Sequence record: NC_001332.1
Reading direction: 5' to 3' (one strand)
Length of the DNA stretch: 6,744 nt
From: Lineavirus I22
Made by a program: the position numbers and the translations under genes. This document shows, one piece after another, positions 1-6,744 of this stretch. Below the pieces are notes generated by a model that saw only the letters and a program-made list of their open reading frames with translations, was not told the origin of the DNA and did no database searches. How positions within the stretch are numbered: the first letter of the stretch is position 1; the number at the start of each line of letters is the position of its first letter.

Positions 1-984
1 AAGCTTCATCATTTCCCGCAGGTAGGCAGATATGCAAAACAATGTCGTGTTATGCGCATTGCAGACAAGCCCACTTTAGAGGATTTAGAGGCCATTGGTC
101 GCGGCAATCTTTCTTATGATGAATCAAAAAACGGCCTTATTGTTTTAGATGAGTGTGGCACGTGGTTTAATTCCCGCAACTGGAGTGATAAAAGTCGCCA
201 GCCTGTTATAGACTGGTTTTTACATGCCCGTAAATTAGGCTGGGATGTAATTTTTATTATTCAGGATATTTCCCTGATGGATAAGCAGGCACGCGAGGCT
301 TTAGCCGAACATGTTGTTTATTGCCGTCGATTAGATAAATTAAATATACCTATCATTGGTGGTTTAATTTCGGTTCTTTCAGGTGGTAGATTGCCATTAC
401 CGAAAGTTCACTTTGGTATTGTTAAATATGGTGATAATCCTCAGTCATTAACTGTAGATAAATGGATTTATACTGGTACAGATTTATATGCTGCTTACGA
501 TACTAAGCAGATATTTACCAGTGACCGTGAATTAAGCCCGCCATTCTGCCCCGTTTCGCCTTATTACACTCATGGCATATTTGCCGTTAAAAGGGATGCT
601 AAATATTATATGCGTATGACAAAAATCTATTTTAAGAAGATGAATCGTGTTTGGTTAATGGCTTCCTTTCTTGCTCTTGGTGCTGGCGTAGGGTTTTTTT
701 ATAAATCTCGCCAGATAAATGAGCAACTATCAAATATGCCTGTAGCGTCTGCTCAGGCTAATACCACTAAAACAGATCACACCATTGATGAATTGCCACG
801 ATTATCGATCAACTCATTTGCACAAATGGGTTATGATGTAAATGTAAGTTTTAAAGATGCAAAGGGAAAAATCTATTACTCATTTGATTTAATGAAATCT
901 GGTTATGCCTTAGATATTAAAGATTCCTGTCATATTACATTGCGTAAACGAAACTACATTCAGCAAGTTACTTGTGAAGGCTAA
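1..984 (+). CDS. I: Gene I protein (pI, Zot-like assembly ATPase), C-terminal part; continues in frame from 6631..6744 across the circular junction
   Basis: Frame 1 is open from position 1 (KLHHFPQVGRYAKQCRVMRIADKP...), so the ORF-track Met at 52 is internal. IADKPTLEDLEAIGRGNLSYDESKNGLIVLDECGTWFNSRNWSDKSRQPVIDWFLHARKLGWDVIFIIQD...AEHVVYCRRLD is near-collinear with Ff pI as I recall it. Hydrophobic membrane span VWLMASFLALGAGVGFFY. Stop TAA at 982-984. Confidence 0.9.
   Translation, partial: KLHHFPQVGRYAKQCRVMRIADKPTLEDLEAIGRGNLSYDESKNGLIVLDECGTWFNSRNWSDKSRQPVIDWFLHARKLGWDVIFIIQDISLMDKQAREALAEHVVYCRRLDKLNIPIIGGLISVLSGGRLPLPKVHFGIVKYGDNPQSLTVDKWIYTGTDLYAAYDTKQIFTSDRELSPPFCPVSPYYTHGIFAVKRDAKYYMRMTKIYFKKMNRVWLMASFLALGAGVGFFYKSRQINEQLSNMPVASAQANTTKTDHTIDELPRLSINSFAQMGYDVNVSFKDAKGKIYYSFDLMKSGYALDIKDSCHITLRKRNYIQQVTCEG
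610..984 (+). CDS. XI: pXI (I*), internal in-frame translation start within gene I
   Basis: In-frame ATG at 610 (MRMTKIYFKKMNRVW...) aligns with the Ff pXI start (MKLTKIYLKK...) just upstream of the membrane span. By analogy with Ff; the start is not verifiable from sequence alone. Confidence 0.45.
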   Translation: MRMTKIYFKKMNRVWLMASFLALGAGVGFFYKSRQINEQLSNMPVASAQANTTKTDHTIDELPRLSINSFAQMGYDVNVSFKDAKGKIYYSFDLMKSGYALDIKDSCHITLRKRNYIQQVTCEG

Positions 985-986
985 TT

Positions 987-2273
987 ATGAAAACTTTTTT
1001 TGCTAAATTCATCGTCGCTTTATTTGCTTTTACTTATTTCTCTGCATTCGCGGAGCCTGTTACTTTAAACAATTCTCCTGTGCGCTCATTCGTTCAATGG
1101 TATTCATCCAAAACAGGAAAATCAGTTATTGTTAACCCTGATGTTAAGGGGAATATCACCGTATTTAATGCTGATGTTAACAACGCAAATATTGATGACT
1201 TTTTTAAGTCTGTCCTTAATGCTAACGGCCTTGTAGTTGTCGCTGGTAATCCTGCCGTTGTTTCCACACCTTTAACTAAGCTCGCGTCGCAGCCGTCAAA
1301 TGAAGAAACCTATGATGATGAAAGTGACGGCGTAGCGTATGAGGCAGTACCGCAGTCGGCTGCGCCTGCTGTACCTGCCGATCTCACGGTACGTAATTTC
1401 AACGTGACGCGCGTTCGTTCTTCTGACGTTCTGCCGCTGGCTAAGATTTTCGTTGATTCAAATGGCGGCGGTAATGTCGTCGATTACCCAGGCAATAACA
1501 GTCTTGTTGTTTCCGGCTCAGCTCAGGTTATGCCTGCTTTATCCGATTTCATTACGTCAATTGATGTTGCCCGCGAACAGGTTCTGATTCAGTCCCTGAT
1601 GTTTGAAACCAGTGTTTCTAATGGCGTGGATCTTTCTTTTGCGCTGGCTCTAGCTTCTGGCGGTAAAGTTGCAGGCGGTTTTAATACCTCAGCTCTCGGC
1701 ACTGCTCTTTCTACTGCTGGCGGTAGCTTCGGTATCTTTAACGGTAACATTCTGGCGTTATCTCTCCAGGCTGTTCAGAGTGATTCTAACTCTAAGGTTA
1801 TCTCTACCCCTCGCATCCTCACGCAGTCCGGCCAGAGTGGTTATATTTCAGTTGGCCAGAATGTTCCTTTTGTGACAGGTAAAGTCACTGGCGAGGCTGC
1901 AAGCGTTAATAATCCTTTCCAGACAATCGAGCGCCGCGACGTAGGCGTATCACTAAAGGTAACGCCGGTTGTTATGGGAAATGGTCAGTTAGTTCTCACC
2001 ATCGATACTAAAGCCGACTCTCTCAGCAATCAGGCGATTGCCTCTGACATCATTACCAATCAGCGCCAGATACAAACCACCGTTCAGATTAAAGACGGTC
2101 AGACCCTGCTTTTAGGCGGCCTGATTAGCTCTAACCAGTTCGACAGCGATCGTTCTGTGCCTTTTATGTCGAAGATTCCTTTAATCGGCTGGCTTTTCCG
2201 CAGCCATTCAGACTCGAAAGATGATCGCACTATGTTCGTTTTGCTTACTGCTCACGTTATCAGGGCGCTTTGA
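987..2273 (+). CDS. IV: pIV secretin (outer-membrane phage export channel)
   Basis: 428 aa. Signal peptide MKTFFAKFIVALFAFTYFSAFA then EPV. Long collinear stretches match Ff pIV as recalled (SVIVNPDVKG, AGGSFGIFNG, SKVISTPRILTQSGQSGYISVGQNVPFVTGKVTGEAASVNNPFQTIERRDVG, QTLLLGGL, VPFMSKIPLIGWLF). SD GAAGG at 976-980, 6 nt before the ATG. Confidence 0.95.
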   Translation: MKTFFAKFIVALFAFTYFSAFAEPVTLNNSPVRSFVQWYSSKTGKSVIVNPDVKGNITVFNADVNNANIDDFFKSVLNANGLVVVAGNPAVVSTPLTKLASQPSNEETYDDESDGVAYEAVPQSAAPAVPADLTVRNFNVTRVRSSDVLPLAKIFVDSNGGGNVVDYPGNNSLVVSGSAQVMPALSDFITSIDVAREQVLIQSLMFETSVSNGVDLSFALALASGGKVAGGFNTSALGTALSTAGGSFGIFNGNILALSLQAVQSDSNSKVISTPRILTQSGQSGYISVGQNVPFVTGKVTGEAASVNNPFQTIERRDVGVSLKVTPVVMGNGQLVLTIDTKADSLSNQAIASDIITNQRQIQTTVQIKDGQTLLLGGLISSNQFDSDRSVPFMSKIPLIGWLFRSHSDSKDDRTMFVLLTAHVIRAL

Positions 2274-2278
2274 GGGTG

Positions 2279-2305
2279 CGGGGTAGGTGCGTTAGCCCTG
2301 CCCCG
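2279..2305 (+). other. GC-rich hairpin just after the gene IV stop; candidate packaging (morphogenetic) signal or part of it
   Basis: 5' arm CGGGGTAGG (2279-2287) pairs with 3' arm CCTGCCCCG (2297-2305): 9 bp including one G-T wobble, 9-nt loop. No T-run follows, so not a classic intrinsic terminator. In Ff the packaging hairpin sits at this position. Confidence 0.4.
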
Positions 2306-2353
2306 TATCCTCACAGCGTCCCCTGACCCGTATCATTCGCTTATCGCCGTATG
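2295..2353 (+). repeat. Iteron-like direct repeats CCCTG(C/A)CCCGTATC with a third partial copy GCCGTATG
   Basis: GCCCTGCCCCGTATCC (2295-2310) and CCCCTGACCCGTATCA (2320-2335) are 25 nt apart with one mismatch in the 14-nt core. CCGTAT recurs at 2347-2352 and ACGTAT at 2380-2385. Confidence 0.4.
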
Positions 2354-2596
2354 TGCTTCCCTGTCTTGTCCCTAAGGCTACGTATTGCCTCCCCGTTTAA
2401 ATCGTCAAGCTATAAATCGTGGGGGCCCCATCGCCCTGTTAAGCTGCCTTTTTTCCTGCGATCCTCCCGCCTCTCTGTTGTCTGACGGTCGCAGACGAAC
2501 AGGACGTTACAGCCATTGTTTTTCGTTCTGCTGGCTTCTTTTTTTGGGGGGTGTACTCTTGTTGCAAAATCGCAACGCAGCGGGGGTTAAATCATG

Positions 2597-2672
2597 CTGC
2601 ACGAAAGTCTCACTTTCGGGATTTTGGTTTTTGGATTTCTGCTGCGGAGTCAGGCGGGGCGGGGTGAACGTG
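2597..2672 (+). other. Nested inverted-repeat structure in a G-tract-rich segment; candidate ssDNA origin element (minus-strand priming site)
   Basis: CTGCACG (2597-2603) is complementary to CGTGCAG (2666-2672). Inner hairpin CGAAAGT-ctc-ACTTTCG (2602-2618). G-tracts at 2545-2550, 2582-2586 and 2655-2664. Functional assignment is inference. Confidence 0.3.
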
Positions 2673-2743
2673 CAGTGTATGTAATACTGCAACGTTTGTC
2701 TCAATCTGATACCTCTCTACTAAACGCCTCCTTTCTTTTTAAG

Positions 2744-2754
2744 CTCTTTAATCA
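2744..2754 (+). promoter_or_regulatory. Candidate plus-strand origin nick-site core (CTCTTTAATCA)
   Basis: Resembles the Ff pII nicking region TTCTTTAAT^AGTGG as I recall it (9 of 11 identical), in a T-rich context upstream of gene II. Hypothesis only. Confidence 0.25.
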
Positions 2755-3002
2755 TTTTCTTTTCTGCTAATTCTGTATAGTTTTCAATGACATAGTTTAA
2801 GTGAATCTGTCCATGTGACCTGTACGCCCGTACTTGTACTAATCCTGATCGCAGTATCACTCAGGTTTTTCTTTTTCTCGGTGGTGATACTGGCTGTTGT
2901 CCTAACTGGTTTTTTCATTTTATGCCTTTGAAAAATATAAAGTTTCTACCGAAAATAGGTTTTTAAGCGTAATCTTATTGTCAATAGATGTAAAAATTTT
3001 TG

Positions 3003-3030
3003 TTGCGCACGTTATTTTTCACGCTATCAT
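3003..3030 (+). promoter_or_regulatory. Candidate sigma70 promoter for gene II
   Basis: TTGCGC (3003-3008), 16-nt spacer, TATCAT (3025-3030), about 60 nt upstream of the gene II start in an AT-rich region. Imperfect hexamers. Confidence 0.3.
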
Positions 3031-3052
3031 GCCTGCATTGGATTTCATCTTG

Positions 3053-3070
3053 ATACGTGTATACACGTAT
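3053..3070. promoter_or_regulatory. 18-bp perfect palindrome ATACGTGTATACACGTAT in the gene II leader; candidate operator or RNA hairpin
   Basis: Self-complementary by inspection (core ACGTGTATACACGT, 3055-3068). Ends 9 nt before the SD (AGGG, 3080-3083) of gene II. Confidence 0.4.
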
Positions 3071-3090
3071 ACATCACTAAGGGAATGCGT

Positions 3091-4125
3091 ATGATTGATT
3101 GGGTTACAGCCGTCTTGCCTTGTCTGCATGTGCCTGTTGATGCTGGTCGCGTCCTCTCTGTTGCGCCGGATGGCTCTGTAGAATGGGAATCAGTAAAGTT
3201 TTCCCGCGTTACTGGCTCCTTTCAAAGCTCCATCAGTGTACGTTCGCAGGGTTCTGACGGTAATGGGAAAGCCACTCATTTATACGTTGATGGTAACCCG
3301 TCAAAGTGGTTGCAGGGTCATAATATCGTTGGAAGCGACGATCTCAACGGCCTTATGATTGCTTTTTACGCTCGTATGTTGTCACTACTCAATATACCTC
3401 ACCATCTAGAATCGTATCGTCAGGTGCTTTCTGGTCAGTACGAGCTAAAGCGCGTTGACATTAACTACATGTTTGAGCTTCCTACGCTCATTGATGTACG
3501 GTCATGGTTACATGCTGCTGAGTTCAAGGCTAAGACTCGTCACGGGCGCCCGGCAACTGCAAAGGGCACTCTGTACTTTGGTAAAAATTCTCGCCGTTGG
3601 TCTATTAAGGCTTACAGCAAATATGATGAAGTAAATTGCGGGAAAAAAGCTCATGGCGTTCCCGAAGAAATTAAGAAAACTGGCCTTGTTGAATGGTCTA
3701 AAAATAAATTACGTCTAGAATTAACATTACGCGCATTGCAGCTTACTGATATTAATTTAAACTTTGCTAAAAACTGGTCTACTGAAACTGCATATACTGT
3801 TTTTAAAGAATATATGGGGCGTATCGAAATGAGCGGAAATACTTTACTTACTGATACTCAAGTTATTAATTTACCGTCTGCGCTACGTATGACTTATGTG
3901 TGCTGGAAACAGGGCATTTGTGTAACAGATATGGTATCTCGCGCCACTTATTTTCGTCACCGCAAGGTTTTAAAAGAATTTGGTATTGATATTGCTGTTA
4001 CTGTTGATCGTGTTGATAATAGCAACGTTGTTCCGTTAATCCGTGTCTTAGAGGCTAAACCTGCTTCTATTCCTTCTCAATATGATAATTTAATATTTTC
4101 ATCTAATCGTGTATCAAGTTTCTAA
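3091..4125 (+). CDS. II: Gene II protein (rolling-circle replication initiator/nickase), divergent and shorter than Ff pII
   Basis: 344 aa from ATG 3091 (MIDWV..., compare Ff pII MIDMLV...). SD AGGG at 3080-3083 is 7 nt upstream; the ORF-track ATG at 3085 has no spacer. By-eye motif matches to Ff pII: SKWLQGHNIVGSDDL vs AKVLQGHNVFGTTDL, and NVVPLIRV vs NVVPLVRF near the C-terminus. The rest is poorly conserved; Ff pII is about 410 aa. Confidence 0.8.
   Translation: MIDWVTAVLPCLHVPVDAGRVLSVAPDGSVEWESVKFSRVTGSFQSSISVRSQGSDGNGKATHLYVDGNPSKWLQGHNIVGSDDLNGLMIAFYARMLSLLNIPHHLESYRQVLSGQYELKRVDINYMFELPTLIDVRSWLHAAEFKAKTRHGRPATAKGTLYFGKNSRRWSIKAYSKYDEVNCGKKAHGVPEEIKKTGLVEWSKNKLRLELTLRALQLTDINLNFAKNWSTETAYTVFKEYMGRIEMSGNTLLTDTQVINLPSALRMTYVCWKQGICVTDMVSRATYFRHRKVLKEFGIDIAVTVDRVDNSNVVPLIRVLEAKPASIPSQYDNLIFSSNRVSSF
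3829..4125 (+). CDS. X: pX, in-frame internal start within gene II (C-terminal domain product)
   Basis: In-frame ATGs at 3814 and 3829 (YMGRIEMSGN...) align with the Ff pX start (FEGDSMNIYDD). ATG 3829 has GGGG 7-12 nt upstream; 3814 is the alternative. By analogy only. Confidence 0.4.
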   Translation: MSGNTLLTDTQVINLPSALRMTYVCWKQGICVTDMVSRATYFRHRKVLKEFGIDIAVTVDRVDNSNVVPLIRVLEAKPASIPSQYDNLIFSSNRVSSF

Positions 4126-4135
4126 GGGGTTTTAA

Positions 4136-4462
4136 ATGCACTCAGGTATTCTTATTCGTGGTCGTATTCTCGGTTCTCGCACTGCAAACCGTGATAATAA
4201 TTCGCCGCAACATATTTTAGGCGTTGGCATTCAGAAAGCTGACGGTTTTGGCGGTACGACTCAGGATGTTGAGCAGGTTAAAATTCCTGACCAGCTTGTG
4301 CAAAGCGGCGTTGTTAATCAGATTAATTCGCTTATTGGCAAACTTTGCGAAGTACCGATTAATGTTCGTTCTTGGTCTATGAACGGCAAAAACGGCACTT
4401 CTTACACTCTGTCTTTTGAGTCCGGTATTCAGGAGATTGAAGAGCTGATTTATGTCAGATGA
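4136..4462 (+). CDS. Gene-V-position protein, putative ssDNA-binding protein; no recognisable similarity to Ff/IKe pV
   Basis: 108-aa ORF with SD AAGGGG (4124-4129) about 6 nt before the ATG, immediately after gene II and overlapping the gene VII start. Function inferred from synteny only; the sequence does not resemble Ff pV as I recall it. Confidence 0.6.
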   Translation: MHSGILIRGRILGSRTANRDNNSPQHILGVGIQKADGFGGTTQDVEQVKIPDQLVQSGVVNQINSLIGKLCEVPINVRSWSMNGKNGTSYTLSFESGIQEIEELIYVR

Positions 4463-4541
4463 ACTAATTCACGTAGTAATAGCTCTCGGCCTCGTTATTT
4501 CCTTCGGTTTGGGTGCTATTACTGCTGGGGTACTCCGATGA
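4452..4541 (+). CDS. VII: pVII-like minor coat protein
   Basis: 29-aa hydrophobic peptide MSDELIHVVIALGLVISFGLGAITAGVLR, comparable to Ff pVII. Start overlaps the gene V-position ORF stop by 11 nt; stop TGA overlaps the gene IX ATG (ATGA). Confidence 0.6.
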   Translation: MSDELIHVVIALGLVISFGLGAITAGVLR

Positions 4542-4639
4542 TTGACTATGTTGGTTTATTCATTGGCGCTTATATAATGGGCTTCGCCCTTTTCTATGGC
4601 ATAGGATTCTTTAAATCCATTGCTGAACGCATCGTTTAA
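4538..4639 (+). CDS. IX: pIX-like minor coat protein
   Basis: 33-aa hydrophobic peptide MIDYVGLFIGAYIMGFALFYGIGFFKSIAERIV, sitting between VII and VIII as in Ff. GGGG 6-9 nt upstream as SD. Confidence 0.6.
   Translation: MIDYVGLFIGAYIMGFALFYGIGFFKSIAERIV
4551..4578 (+). promoter_or_regulatory. Candidate sigma70 promoter for gene VIII, inside gene IX
   Basis: TTGGTT (4551-4556), 16-nt spacer, perfect TATAAT (4573-4578), about 75 nt upstream of the gene VIII ATG. Ff has a strong gene VIII promoter in the equivalent position. Confidence 0.4.
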
Positions 4640-4652
4640 TTAAGGAATACAC

Positions 4653-4907
4653 ATGAGCGTTATTACTAAAGTTGCTGCTGCTAAAAACAAAATCGTTGTT
4701 GGTGCTGGCCTGCTGATGGCTTCTGCTGGCGCGTTCGCTGCTGATGACGGTACTTCTACCGCTACCAGCTACGCTACTGAAGCAATGAACAGCCTGAAAA
4801 CTCAGGCAACTGATCTCATTGATCAGACGTGGCCTGTTGTAACTAGCGTTGCCGTTGCTGGTCTGGCAATTCGTCTTTTCAAGAAATTCTCTTCTAAAGC
4901 TGTTTAA
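4653..4907 (+). CDS. VIII: pVIII major coat protein precursor
   Basis: 84 aa. Signal peptide ending AFA, then an acidic N-terminus (ADDGTS), hydrophobic core and basic C-terminus. NYATEAM.SLKTQA.DLI.QTWPVV...AGL.IRLFKKFSSKAV is close to IKe/Ff pVIII as recalled. SD TAAGGAA at 4640-4646. Confidence 0.95.
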   Translation: MSVITKVAAAKNKIVVGAGLLMASAGAFAADDGTSTATSYATEAMNSLKTQATDLIDQTWPVVTSVAVAGLAIRLFKKFSSKAV

Positions 4908-4923
4908 TATTCAGCGTTTTCAA

Positions 4924-4949
4924 GGGGCGCTATTGCGCCCTTTTTTTTT
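4924..4949 (+). terminator. Rho-independent terminator after gene VIII
   Basis: GC stem GGGGCGC (4924-4930), loop TATT, GCGCCC (4935-4940), then nine T (4941-4949). Same position as the central terminator of Ff. Confidence 0.85.
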
Positions 4950-4974
4950 ACTTTAATTCAGCTAAGGTGTAATT

Positions 4975-6279
4975 GTGAAAAGAAAAATAATAGCAATTTC
5001 TTTATTTTTATACATCCCTTTGTCTAATGCTGATAATTGGGAGTCTATTACTAAAAGCTATTATACTGGCTTTGCCATGTCTAAAACTGTTGAATCAAAA
5101 GATCAGGATGGTAAAACAGTTCGTAAAGAGGTTATAACTCAGGCTGATTTAACTACCGCCTGTAATGATGCTAAAGCCTCCGCGCAAGATGTTTTTAATC
5201 AAATGAAGCTAACATTTTCTGGTATATGGCCTGATTCTCAGTTTCGCCTTGTAACTGGTGATACCTGCGTTTATAACGGTTCGCCTAGTGAAAAAACTGA
5301 AAGTTGGTCTATTCGCGCTCAGGTTGAGGGTGATATGCAACGTTCTGTACCAGATGAAGAACCTTCTGAACAAACGCCAGAAGAAATCTGTGAAGCAAAA
5401 CCTCCTATTGATGGCGTCTTTAATAACGTCTCTAAGGGTGACGAAGGAGGCTTTTATATTAATTATAATGGCTGCGAATATGAGGCAACTGGCGTCACTG
5501 TTTGCCAGAATGATGGAACTGTCTGTGCCTCCTCCGCTTGGAAGCCAACTGGTTACGTTCCCGAATCTGGAGAATCTTCCTCCTCTCCTGTGAAAGATGG
5601 TGACACTGGCGGTACTGGTGAAGGTGGTTCTGATACTGGCGGTGATACTGGTGGCGGTGATACTGGTGGTGGTTCTACTGGCGGCGATACTGGCGGTTCT
5701 ACTGGTGGCGGTTCTACTGGTGGCGGTTCTACTGGTGGATCAACTGGTAAATCACTGACAAAGGAAGATGTAACCGCAGCAATACATGATGCTTCCCCTT
5801 CTATTGGTGATGCTGTTAAAGATTCCCTTACAGAAGATAATGACCAGAACGACAATCAGAAGAAAGCAGATGAACAATCAGCTAAAGCCTCTGCTTCTGT
5901 ATCTGATGCTATCTCTGATGGTATGCGTGGCGTTGGTAATTTCGTTGACGATCTTGGCGGTGAGTCGTCGCAATACGGAATCGGTAATTCTGAAATGGAT
6001 CTCTCCGTTAGCCTGGCTAAAGGGCAACTTGGAATTGATCTTGAAGGTCATGGTTCAGCTTGGGAATCCTTTTTAAATGACGGTGCTTTACGTCCCTCCA
6101 TTCCTTCTGGTCATGGCTGTACTGATTTTGTCATGTTTCAGGGTTCTGTTTATCAGCTTGATATTGGCTGCGATAAATTAGGCGATATTAAGTCTGTATT
6201 ATCTTGGGTTATGTATTGCCTTACCTTCTGGTATGTATTCCAGTCTGCTACTTCATTACTTCGTAAAGGTGAACAATAA
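4975..6279 (+). CDS. III: pIII minor coat / adsorption protein
   Basis: 434 aa with GTG start (Ff gene III also starts with GTG). Signal peptide [19 protein letters not shown], Cys-containing N-terminal receptor-binding domains, Gly/Ser/Thr/Asp-rich linker, hydrophobic C-terminal anchor ([15 protein letters not shown]). Stop TAA overlaps the gene VI ATG (TAATG). Confidence 0.9.
5599..5748 (+). repeat. Imperfect tandem 15-nt repeats encoding the glycine-rich pIII linker
   Basis: Repeated GGTGGCGGTTCTACT-like units encoding [50 protein letters not shown]. Confidence 0.85.
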
Positions 6280-6629
6280 TGCCAGCTTTATTAGGTATTC
6301 CGGCTTTAATTCGTTTCATAATGGGGCTTGTGCCTCTTGCTATTGGTTATTTTGCTAAGTTCTTAGGCAAAATTATTACCCGTAATGGCTTGATGGCTGC
6401 TGCCTTGATTGGTGCGATCCTTTCATTTGTCACCTTTGCAATTCAGCTTTTAGGCGATGCTTTATCTTCTGCAATGGGCGGAATGCCTGCTGATTTTGGA
6501 AATTTAATGTCCTCTGTATTACCTGATGGTACAACAACTTGTATTACAGTAATTATAGACTACCAGATAGCGGTCTTTGTTTTCGATATTAAAGATCGCT
6601 TACTCGGCATTGCCAATAAGGTAATTTGA
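6279..6629 (+). CDS. VI: pVI minor coat protein
   Basis: 116-aa hydrophobic protein. N-terminus [13 protein letters not shown] matches Ff pVI MPVLLGIPLLLRF; C-terminal [11 protein letters not shown] matches AAIFIFDVKQK. Confidence 0.9.
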
Positions 6630-6630
6630 T

Positions 6631-6744
6631 ATGGCTGTTTATGTTGTTACCGGAAAATTAGGCGCAGGCAAGACGCTTGTAGCTGTATCGCGTATACAAA
6701 GGACTTTAGCTAAAGGTGGTATTGTTGCCACCAATCTAAATTTA
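6631..6744 (+). CDS. I: Gene I protein (pI), N-terminal 38 codons; continues at window position 1
   Basis: MAVYVVTGKLGAGKTLVAVSRIQ... contains the Walker A P-loop GKLGAGKT and matches the Ff pI N-terminus (MAVYFVTGKLGSGKTLVSV). Frame (6631+114=6745) joins frame 1 of the window start exactly. Confidence 0.9.
   Translation, partial: MAVYVVTGKLGAGKTLVAVSRIQRTLAKGGIVATNLNL

Follow-up and report, generated by a model that had tools for sequence, protein, structure and literature searches.

The question raised by the 6744-nucleotide (nt) stretch of DNA analysed here, the whole of which is referred to as the window, is why an open reading frame (ORF) resembling phage gene I is cut off by the 3' end and appears to continue from base 1. 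In the original prediction the window was taken to be a complete circular replicon numbered from a unique restriction site, with gene I divided between its two ends. The window is almost certainly the full circular genome of the filamentous E. coli phage I2-2 (Enterobacteria phage I2-2, Lineavirus I22; Inoviridae, IncI2-pilus-specific), presented as its viral (+) strand and opened at the one HindIII site it contains, and gene I would look split only because a circular genome has been written out from that site.

An ATG at position 6631, preceded by a ribosome-binding site (TAAGGT), starts an ORF (MAVYVVTGKLGAGKT...) that runs for exactly 38 codons (114 nt) up to the 3' end, and frame 1 is without a stop from base 1 up to the TAA at 982..984. 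The length of the window is divisible by 3. Concatenation of 6631..6744 with 1..984, which had been proposed as a check, gave 1098 nt, equal to 365 codons and a stop with 0 internal stops, and confirmed that the window ends divide one uninterrupted 365-amino acid (aa) ORF. When the sequence was doubled, gene I was the sole long ORF to cross the junction, the sole other being a 49-codon open frame. No HindIII site other than the AAGCTT at bases 1..6 occurs in the circularised sequence. This unique site sits within gene I, between codons 38 and 39, and fits the suggestion that the numbering starts at a unique restriction site. The record of M13 (NC_003287) is a parallel, as it is also numbered within a gene and its gene II coding sequence runs across the ends (6006..831).

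The product of the joined pieces aligned to the pI/Zot proteins as one continuous homologue. The Pfam domain Zot (PF05707) matched residues 2-155 (E = 8e-38, 130.3 bits against a gathering cut-off of 20.3), and therefore spans the junction at residue 38/39. In a BLASTP comparison with the pI of phage IKe, also of 365 aa, 85% identity was found over 365/365 residues with 0 gaps, and residues 1-60 were identical; a three-way alignment with IKe gave 52% identity to M13 pI. The P-loop GKLGAGKT noted in the 6631 ORF is present at residues 8-15 (Walker A, G8KLGAGKT15), and is followed by a Walker B motif (L84IVLDE89) and a hydrophobic stretch at residues 255-271; the colinearity with IKe pI takes in both the membrane span and the periplasmic C-terminal part. 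Residues G8, K9, G13, K14, T15, D88, E89 and Met242 are invariant in the I2-2, IKe and M13 proteins. No match to pI was obtained in NCBIfam, and a sequence search of the PDB returned 0 matches. The joined protein and the product of I2-2 gene I (CAA32519.1 / NP_039622.1 / UniProt P15418, G1P_BPI22) are identical throughout. The junction ORF is not a product of chance, both because of this exact database match and because the 1200 nt around the junction align as one piece to IKe and to a closed circular relative described below.

Exact I2-2 matches were also found for pII in its 344-aa form (P15419), pIII (P15415), pIV (P15420) and pV (P15417), and the sequence on which these exact-match proteins are recorded is of the same length as the window. 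No difference from I2-2 (GenBank protein series CAA325xx) was detected at the protein level, and the two are the same entity. The window is a known phage and not a new element, which is the only correction to be made to the original prediction. The I2-2 RefSeq record is NC_001332, and both I2-2 and IKe are non-integrating members of Lineavirus (PMC7307601). Within the phage collection searched, the best match of the window was IKe, with 49% coverage. The split of gene I is already known, being the ordinary result of presenting the circular genome of a known phage in linear form, and it is of practical value only: a linear reading of the record would, as predicted, misannotate the gene as two fragments, one of 38 codons and one of 327. 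The joined 365-aa pI is already among the deposited I2-2 proteins, so the split has been handled there.

Both parts of the claim that the window is a complete circular replicon were borne out. As to completeness, all Ff-type genes are present (II/X, V, VII, IX, VIII, III, VI, I/XI and IV) together with an intergenic region, and the entire window, homologous to episomal relatives, consists of phage genes or phage intergenic region. As to circularity, the window was compared with plasmid p4 of Klebsiella pneumoniae strain 23620 (NZ_CP132687.1), a closed circle of 6814 nt, and with ten contigs (L007-L016) that resemble I2-2 and derive from unrelated metagenomes and isolates; it is a circular permutation of all of them. 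Plasmid p4 covers 100% of the window, the junction of which lies in its interior at 3402|3403, and the ends of p4 itself map to window 2744..3942, inside gene II. Each record contains the ends of the other internally, and the two are circularly permuted relative to one another. A stretch of 1200 nt with the junction at its centre aligned to p4 2803..4002 in one piece (97.8%), and formed a single alignment to IKe 3252..4450. Over the longer range, window 4465..6741 mapped to IKe 1581..3848 and window 1..2303 to IKe 3852..6181. The junction was also crossed in one piece by 10/10 of the I2-2-like contigs, 9/10 of which have exact terminal overlaps (119, 55, 30 or 27 nt, typical assembler k values) that close them into circles of 6815/6816 nt, and each of these nine is broken at a different site.

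The window could instead have been cut from a larger molecule, either as part of an integrated prophage or from a copy, tandem or defective, in a chromosome or large plasmid, with the join a coincidence of the cut. Such arrangements do occur among relatives. A 1.18-Mb Salmonella contig carries the equivalent of 5194..6744 and 1..2299, the 14488-nt E. coli plasmid pCREC572-6 appears to hold approximately two copies of an IKe-like genome, and the related UPphi phages integrate at dif (PMC7307601). However, every gene occurs exactly once in the window, neither an integrase nor a host gene was found there in the ORF list or with Pfam, no flanking host sequence was found, and neither strand has a dif-like site within 3 mismatches of E. 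coli dif. The window is also as long as the sequence recorded for the I2-2 proteins that it matches exactly (6744 nt), excision from a tandem array would have had to take exactly one unit starting exactly at the unique HindIII site, and the 6744|1 junction is continuous even in the defective, integrated Salmonella remnant. This explanation is already close to refuted, and is very improbable. Smaller still is the probability that the assembly was imperfectly circularised, so that a few bases are missing or duplicated at the join and the in-frame continuation is only approximate. Duplicated ends are a common artefact of circular contigs, as seen in the nine related contigs above, but the window has no terminal repeat of at least 6 nt, and there is no gap at the join in the alignments to IKe and p4. 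The protein encoded across the join does not differ from the deposited one, its first 60 residues are those of IKe pI, and the nearest indels to the junction in a whole-genome alignment to L007 are at 6567 and 2428.

Set against the reading of the window as the complete circular genome of I2-2 are the following points. The circularity of this particular molecule is deduced from its content and its relatives, and its base-for-base identity to X14336/NC_001332 from five exact proteins and the length. In addition, the canonical minus-strand origin hairpins found in all wild relatives are absent, and because of this the window may be slightly incomplete compared with the natural replicon. If the window is the I2-2 genome, as is preferred here, base 6744 would in the real molecule be bonded to base 1, and gene I would be a single 1098-nt gene.

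The integrated Salmonella copy (Salmonella enterica GCA_008186245.1, 8427..12412 of locus L002 on the 1.18-Mb contig) is a remnant, in the chromosome, of a phage resembling I2-2. The possibility that it is a complete prophage, at odds with an episomal lifestyle, was considered and rejected, as it holds only gene III in truncated form (starting at residue 73) with genes VI, I (98% identical) and IV, and is without replication or coat genes. Approximately 140 nt upstream, at 8427..8459, is a dif-like sequence (XerC arm 10/11, XerD arm 9/11, 11-nt spacer). A pI of the same 90%-identity cluster is also present on contigs of >1 Mb in two other Salmonella assemblies.

The features of the window are listed in Table 1. 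The ORF list, Pfam, PHROG and colinearity with IKe together give the gene order II(X)-V-VII-IX-VIII-III-VI-I(XI)-IV followed by the intergenic region, with all canonical genes on the + strand.

Table 1. Features located in the window, in order of position.
Feature	Position	Strand	Basis and remarks
HindIII site AAGCTT	1..6	.	Unique; numbering origin of the record
Gene I, 3' part	1..984	+	Codons 39-365 and TAA; Walker B-like LIVLDECG; membrane-spanning stretch VWLMASFLALGAGVGFF
Gene XI (predicted)	610..984	+	In-frame internal start at Met242 of pI, 124 aa; by analogy
Gene IV, secretin, 428 aa	987..2273	+	Pfam Secretin, Secretin_N, GspD N0; exact I2-2 pIV
Near-perfect hairpin, 43 nt; putative packaging (morphogenetic) signal and terminator	2271..2313	+	DNA fold; directly 3' of gene IV
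Intergenic region	2274..3090
Minus-strand origin stump, Ff/IKe type	2400..2445	+	Approximately 75 nt with both hairpins absent between 2428 and 2430
Plus-strand origin core, probable (GTGTACTCTTGTTGCAAAATCGCAAC)	2518..2576	+	Resembles Ff nick / pII-binding region
Ribbon-helix-helix (RHH) gene, 65 aa in relatives	2720..2918	-	Split here into two overlapping ORFs
Three palindromic hexamers, (G)ATAC-GT-GTATAC-AC-GTATAC, candidate operator	3051..3072	.	Just upstream of gene II ribosome-binding site
Gene II, rolling-circle replication initiator, 344 aa	3091..4125	+	Pfam Phage_CRI and G2P_X_C; exact I2-2 pII
Gene X (predicted)	3829..4125	+	Internal start at Met247 of pII, 98 aa; by analogy
Gene V, single-stranded DNA (ssDNA)-binding protein, 108 aa	4136..4462	+	Pfam Putative_G5P; exact I2-2 pV
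Gene VII, 29 aa	4452..4541	+	Pfam Inovirus_G7P_2
Gene IX, 33 aa	4538..4639	+	phrog_28333, E = 9.5e-24; position as IKe gene IX
Gene VIII, major coat protein precursor, 84 aa	4653..4907	+	Pfam Phage_coatGP8
Intrinsic terminator after gene VIII	4922..4953	+	GC-rich hairpin, then T run; top terminator-like site
Gene III, attachment protein, 434 aa, GTG start	4975..6279	+	Pfam G3P_pilus-bind and Phage_Coat_A; exact I2-2 pIII
Gene VI, 116 aa	6279..6629	+	Pfam DUF5455; colinear with IKe gene VI
Gene I, 5' part	6631..6744	+	Codons 1-38; Walker A GKLGAGKT = residues 8-15

A single nucleotide separates the end of gene VI from the gene I ATG. Within gene I, Met242 of pI aligns with M13 pI Met241 in an invariant column, and the M13 residue is the established pXI start. 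By this analogy pXI is probably made from the internal Met242; no clear Shine-Dalgarno sequence is found upstream of its codon. Gene X would arise similarly, and phrog_17464 covers pII residues 247-343 starting at profile position 1. An alternative ATG for gene II at 3085 adds 2 residues, and the resulting 346-aa form has no exact database match. Judging from Ff and IKe biology, pI would be an inner-membrane P-loop assembly ATPase, and homology with Ff suggests that pI and pXI would work with the pIV secretin to extrude pV-coated ssDNA, which would be recognised via the hairpin after gene IV. This hairpin is at the position equivalent to the 'morphogenetic signal' of IKe (6141..6196), and the block of IKe homology over 1..2303 terminates inside it. 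The terminator after gene VIII has its IKe counterpart at 2031..2050. A search of the whole window against Rfam in E-value mode returned only a sub-threshold match over this terminator, to the fstAT antitoxin small RNA (4903..4987; 24.5 bits against a gathering threshold of 72, E = 0.54), which was rejected as it is almost certainly due to chance. The probable plus-strand origin core gave a modest local alignment to M13 5741..5900, with a score of 40 compared to a mean of 23.2 for shuffled sequences (standard deviation 3.7, maximum 37).

The gene order of IKe (NC_002014, 6883 nt) is that of the window, and its record has another numbering start, hence its gene I is unsplit. The block from gene VII to gene IV with the packaging hairpin (4465..6744 and 1..2303) is homologous between the two, at 75-89% DNA identity, whereas window 2304..4464, which comprises most of the intergenic region and genes II/X and V, has no DNA homology to IKe except for a 30-nt stump of the minus-strand origin. 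M13 is like the window in gene order and in having a single coding strand, but differs in its pilus receptor domain and in its intact minus-strand origin. Full-length I2-2-like genomes are represented by p4 and by the 6816-nt circles of the ten contigs, which cover 100% of the window at approximately 92-98%; they differ from it in carrying a 75-nt minus-origin segment, an intact 65-aa RHH ORF, a 103-aa pV and a pIII that is shorter (419 aa) or divergent.

The absence of IKe homology over 2304..4464 is a replication-module exchange, and such an exchange is said to have been described for I2-2 by Stassen et al. in 1992 (J Mol Evol). When pII was searched with tblastn against deposited phages, the only match was Dulem virus 58, at 31% identity. 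A second family of circular inovirus contigs of 7.1 kb (L017-L026) has only window 2598..4454 in common with I2-2, at 84-85% identity, and this common module consists of the RHH ORF and genes II and V. In these contigs the structural and assembly genes are unrelated to those of the window, and include a protein of 586 aa at the place of gene III, a DUF2523 protein, a 355-aa Zot and a 410-aa secretin; among deposited phages this structural module has a sole match, with 3% coverage and 69% identity. In this second family, module exchange is seen directly.

Three observations made alongside, namely the RHH gene, the gap in the minus-strand origin and the indels, are more interesting than the split of gene I. 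Taken jointly, the proposal that the I2-2 record hides a real RHH gene, the product of which is a possible repressor of gene II acting via the triple GTATAC, and that the natural lineage keeps a minus origin absent from the reference stands at about even chances. New inoviruses are still compared with the I2-2 reference, which appears to carry both several indels and the 75-nt gap.

The missing minus-origin segment corresponds to L007 622..696 and is present in L007, p4, IKe (6333..6438) and M13; the same gap in the window shows in the BLAST coordinates of the other nine contigs. The complete element, of 114 nt, is present in these four genomes, and the window keeps only 17 nt and 11 nt of it. 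L007 595..707 matches M13 5625..5737 at 85%, and bases 2400..2429 of the window match IKe 6332..6361. The wild version is predicted to fold into two hairpins (-25 kcal/mol), compared to -3.4 for the window stump. The absence of the hairpins is a defect of this sequence or strain, and is no argument against membership of the family. Since the wild relatives keep the segment, the minus origin of the wild lineage would be part of the IKe-like block and not of the exchanged module. If this is true, the intact wild minus origin would shift the boundary of the replication-module exchange. The 75-nt gap was also considered as a missed HaeIII/Sau96I fragment, and this was rejected from an alignment read by hand: had the fragment been cut out precisely at GG^CC, GGGGGCCATCG would remain, but the sequence in the window is GGGGGCCCCATCG.

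In E. coli plasmid pCREC572-6 (NZ_CP183160.1), the region of IKe 6229..6453, including the minus-origin hairpins, is replaced by approximately 580 nt encoding a 143-aa putative zinc-ribbon protein.

The RHH gene lies on the complementary strand, and its ORF is split in the window by one extra T in the run at 2796..2798. An intact complementary-strand ORF of 65-66 aa is present approximately 170 nt upstream of gene II in every relative examined (p4, L007-L016 and L017-L026). A search with the RHH protein gave 28 clusters, of which 26 are of 65-66 aa and two are shorter (48 and 51 aa). The IKe homologue is at 6798..6604, where the RefSeq record has regulatory features annotated but no gene, and the homologue in phage If1 lies, not annotated, inside the 'major intergenic region' of its record. 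No homologue was found in M13 with tblastn. The dN/dS ratio (nonsynonymous to synonymous substitution rates) of the RHH gene was 0.12-0.14 across divergent pairs, and 0.38 for the nearly identical pair of the window and L007; the gene is under purifying selection in all the wild relatives examined. The family corresponds to phrog_2503, listed as of unknown function. Searches of Pfam and NCBIfam with the RHH ORF gave no match, and a PDB sequence search gave only weak matches to designed helical repeat proteins. No paper describing the complementary-strand ORF in IKe or I2-2 was found in the open-access literature, and the UPphi paper treats that region as intergenic in I2-2, IKe and M13 (PMC7307601).

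The hexamers of the candidate operator are spaced 8 bp apart; L007 has GTATAC in all three places, and the first is GATAC in the window. In p4 all three are changed together to GCATGC, and the predicted DNA-reading strand of its RHH protein also differs, with RTSASITR compared to RTTASITT. The concerted change of the hexamers is suggestive of an operator bound by a protein, with the two evolving together. In the working model the RHH protein would be a repressor at the gene II promoter region, and if it does regulate gene II, the group of IKe, I2-2 and If1 would have a layer of replication control that is absent from Ff.

The extra T in the RHH gene probably belongs to a set of several errors of a single base. 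Relative to L007, one base is inserted in the window at each of 2445, 2500, 2667, 2691, 2796, 3084, 4439, 4963 and 6557, and none of the relatives compared has the single-base indels of the window. At 6557 the insertion is offset by a deletion of one base at 6567, so that pVI residues TTR (in L007, p4 and IKe) become DYQ, and the extra G at 4439 lengthens pV to 108 aa compared with 103 aa in the relatives. None of the single-base indels touches the junction. The pattern suggests sequencing errors in the old I2-2 record, although a real difference of the strain could account for the indels instead.

The 'major intergenic region' of phage If1 (NC_001954) also holds, at 980..1423 of locus L027, an unannotated 147-aa ORF (…VHMLIEYPP…LWSRSYFAGSCGGAPLEVVRQYIQHQ), the product of which presumably resembles a TnpA of the IS200/IS605 type.

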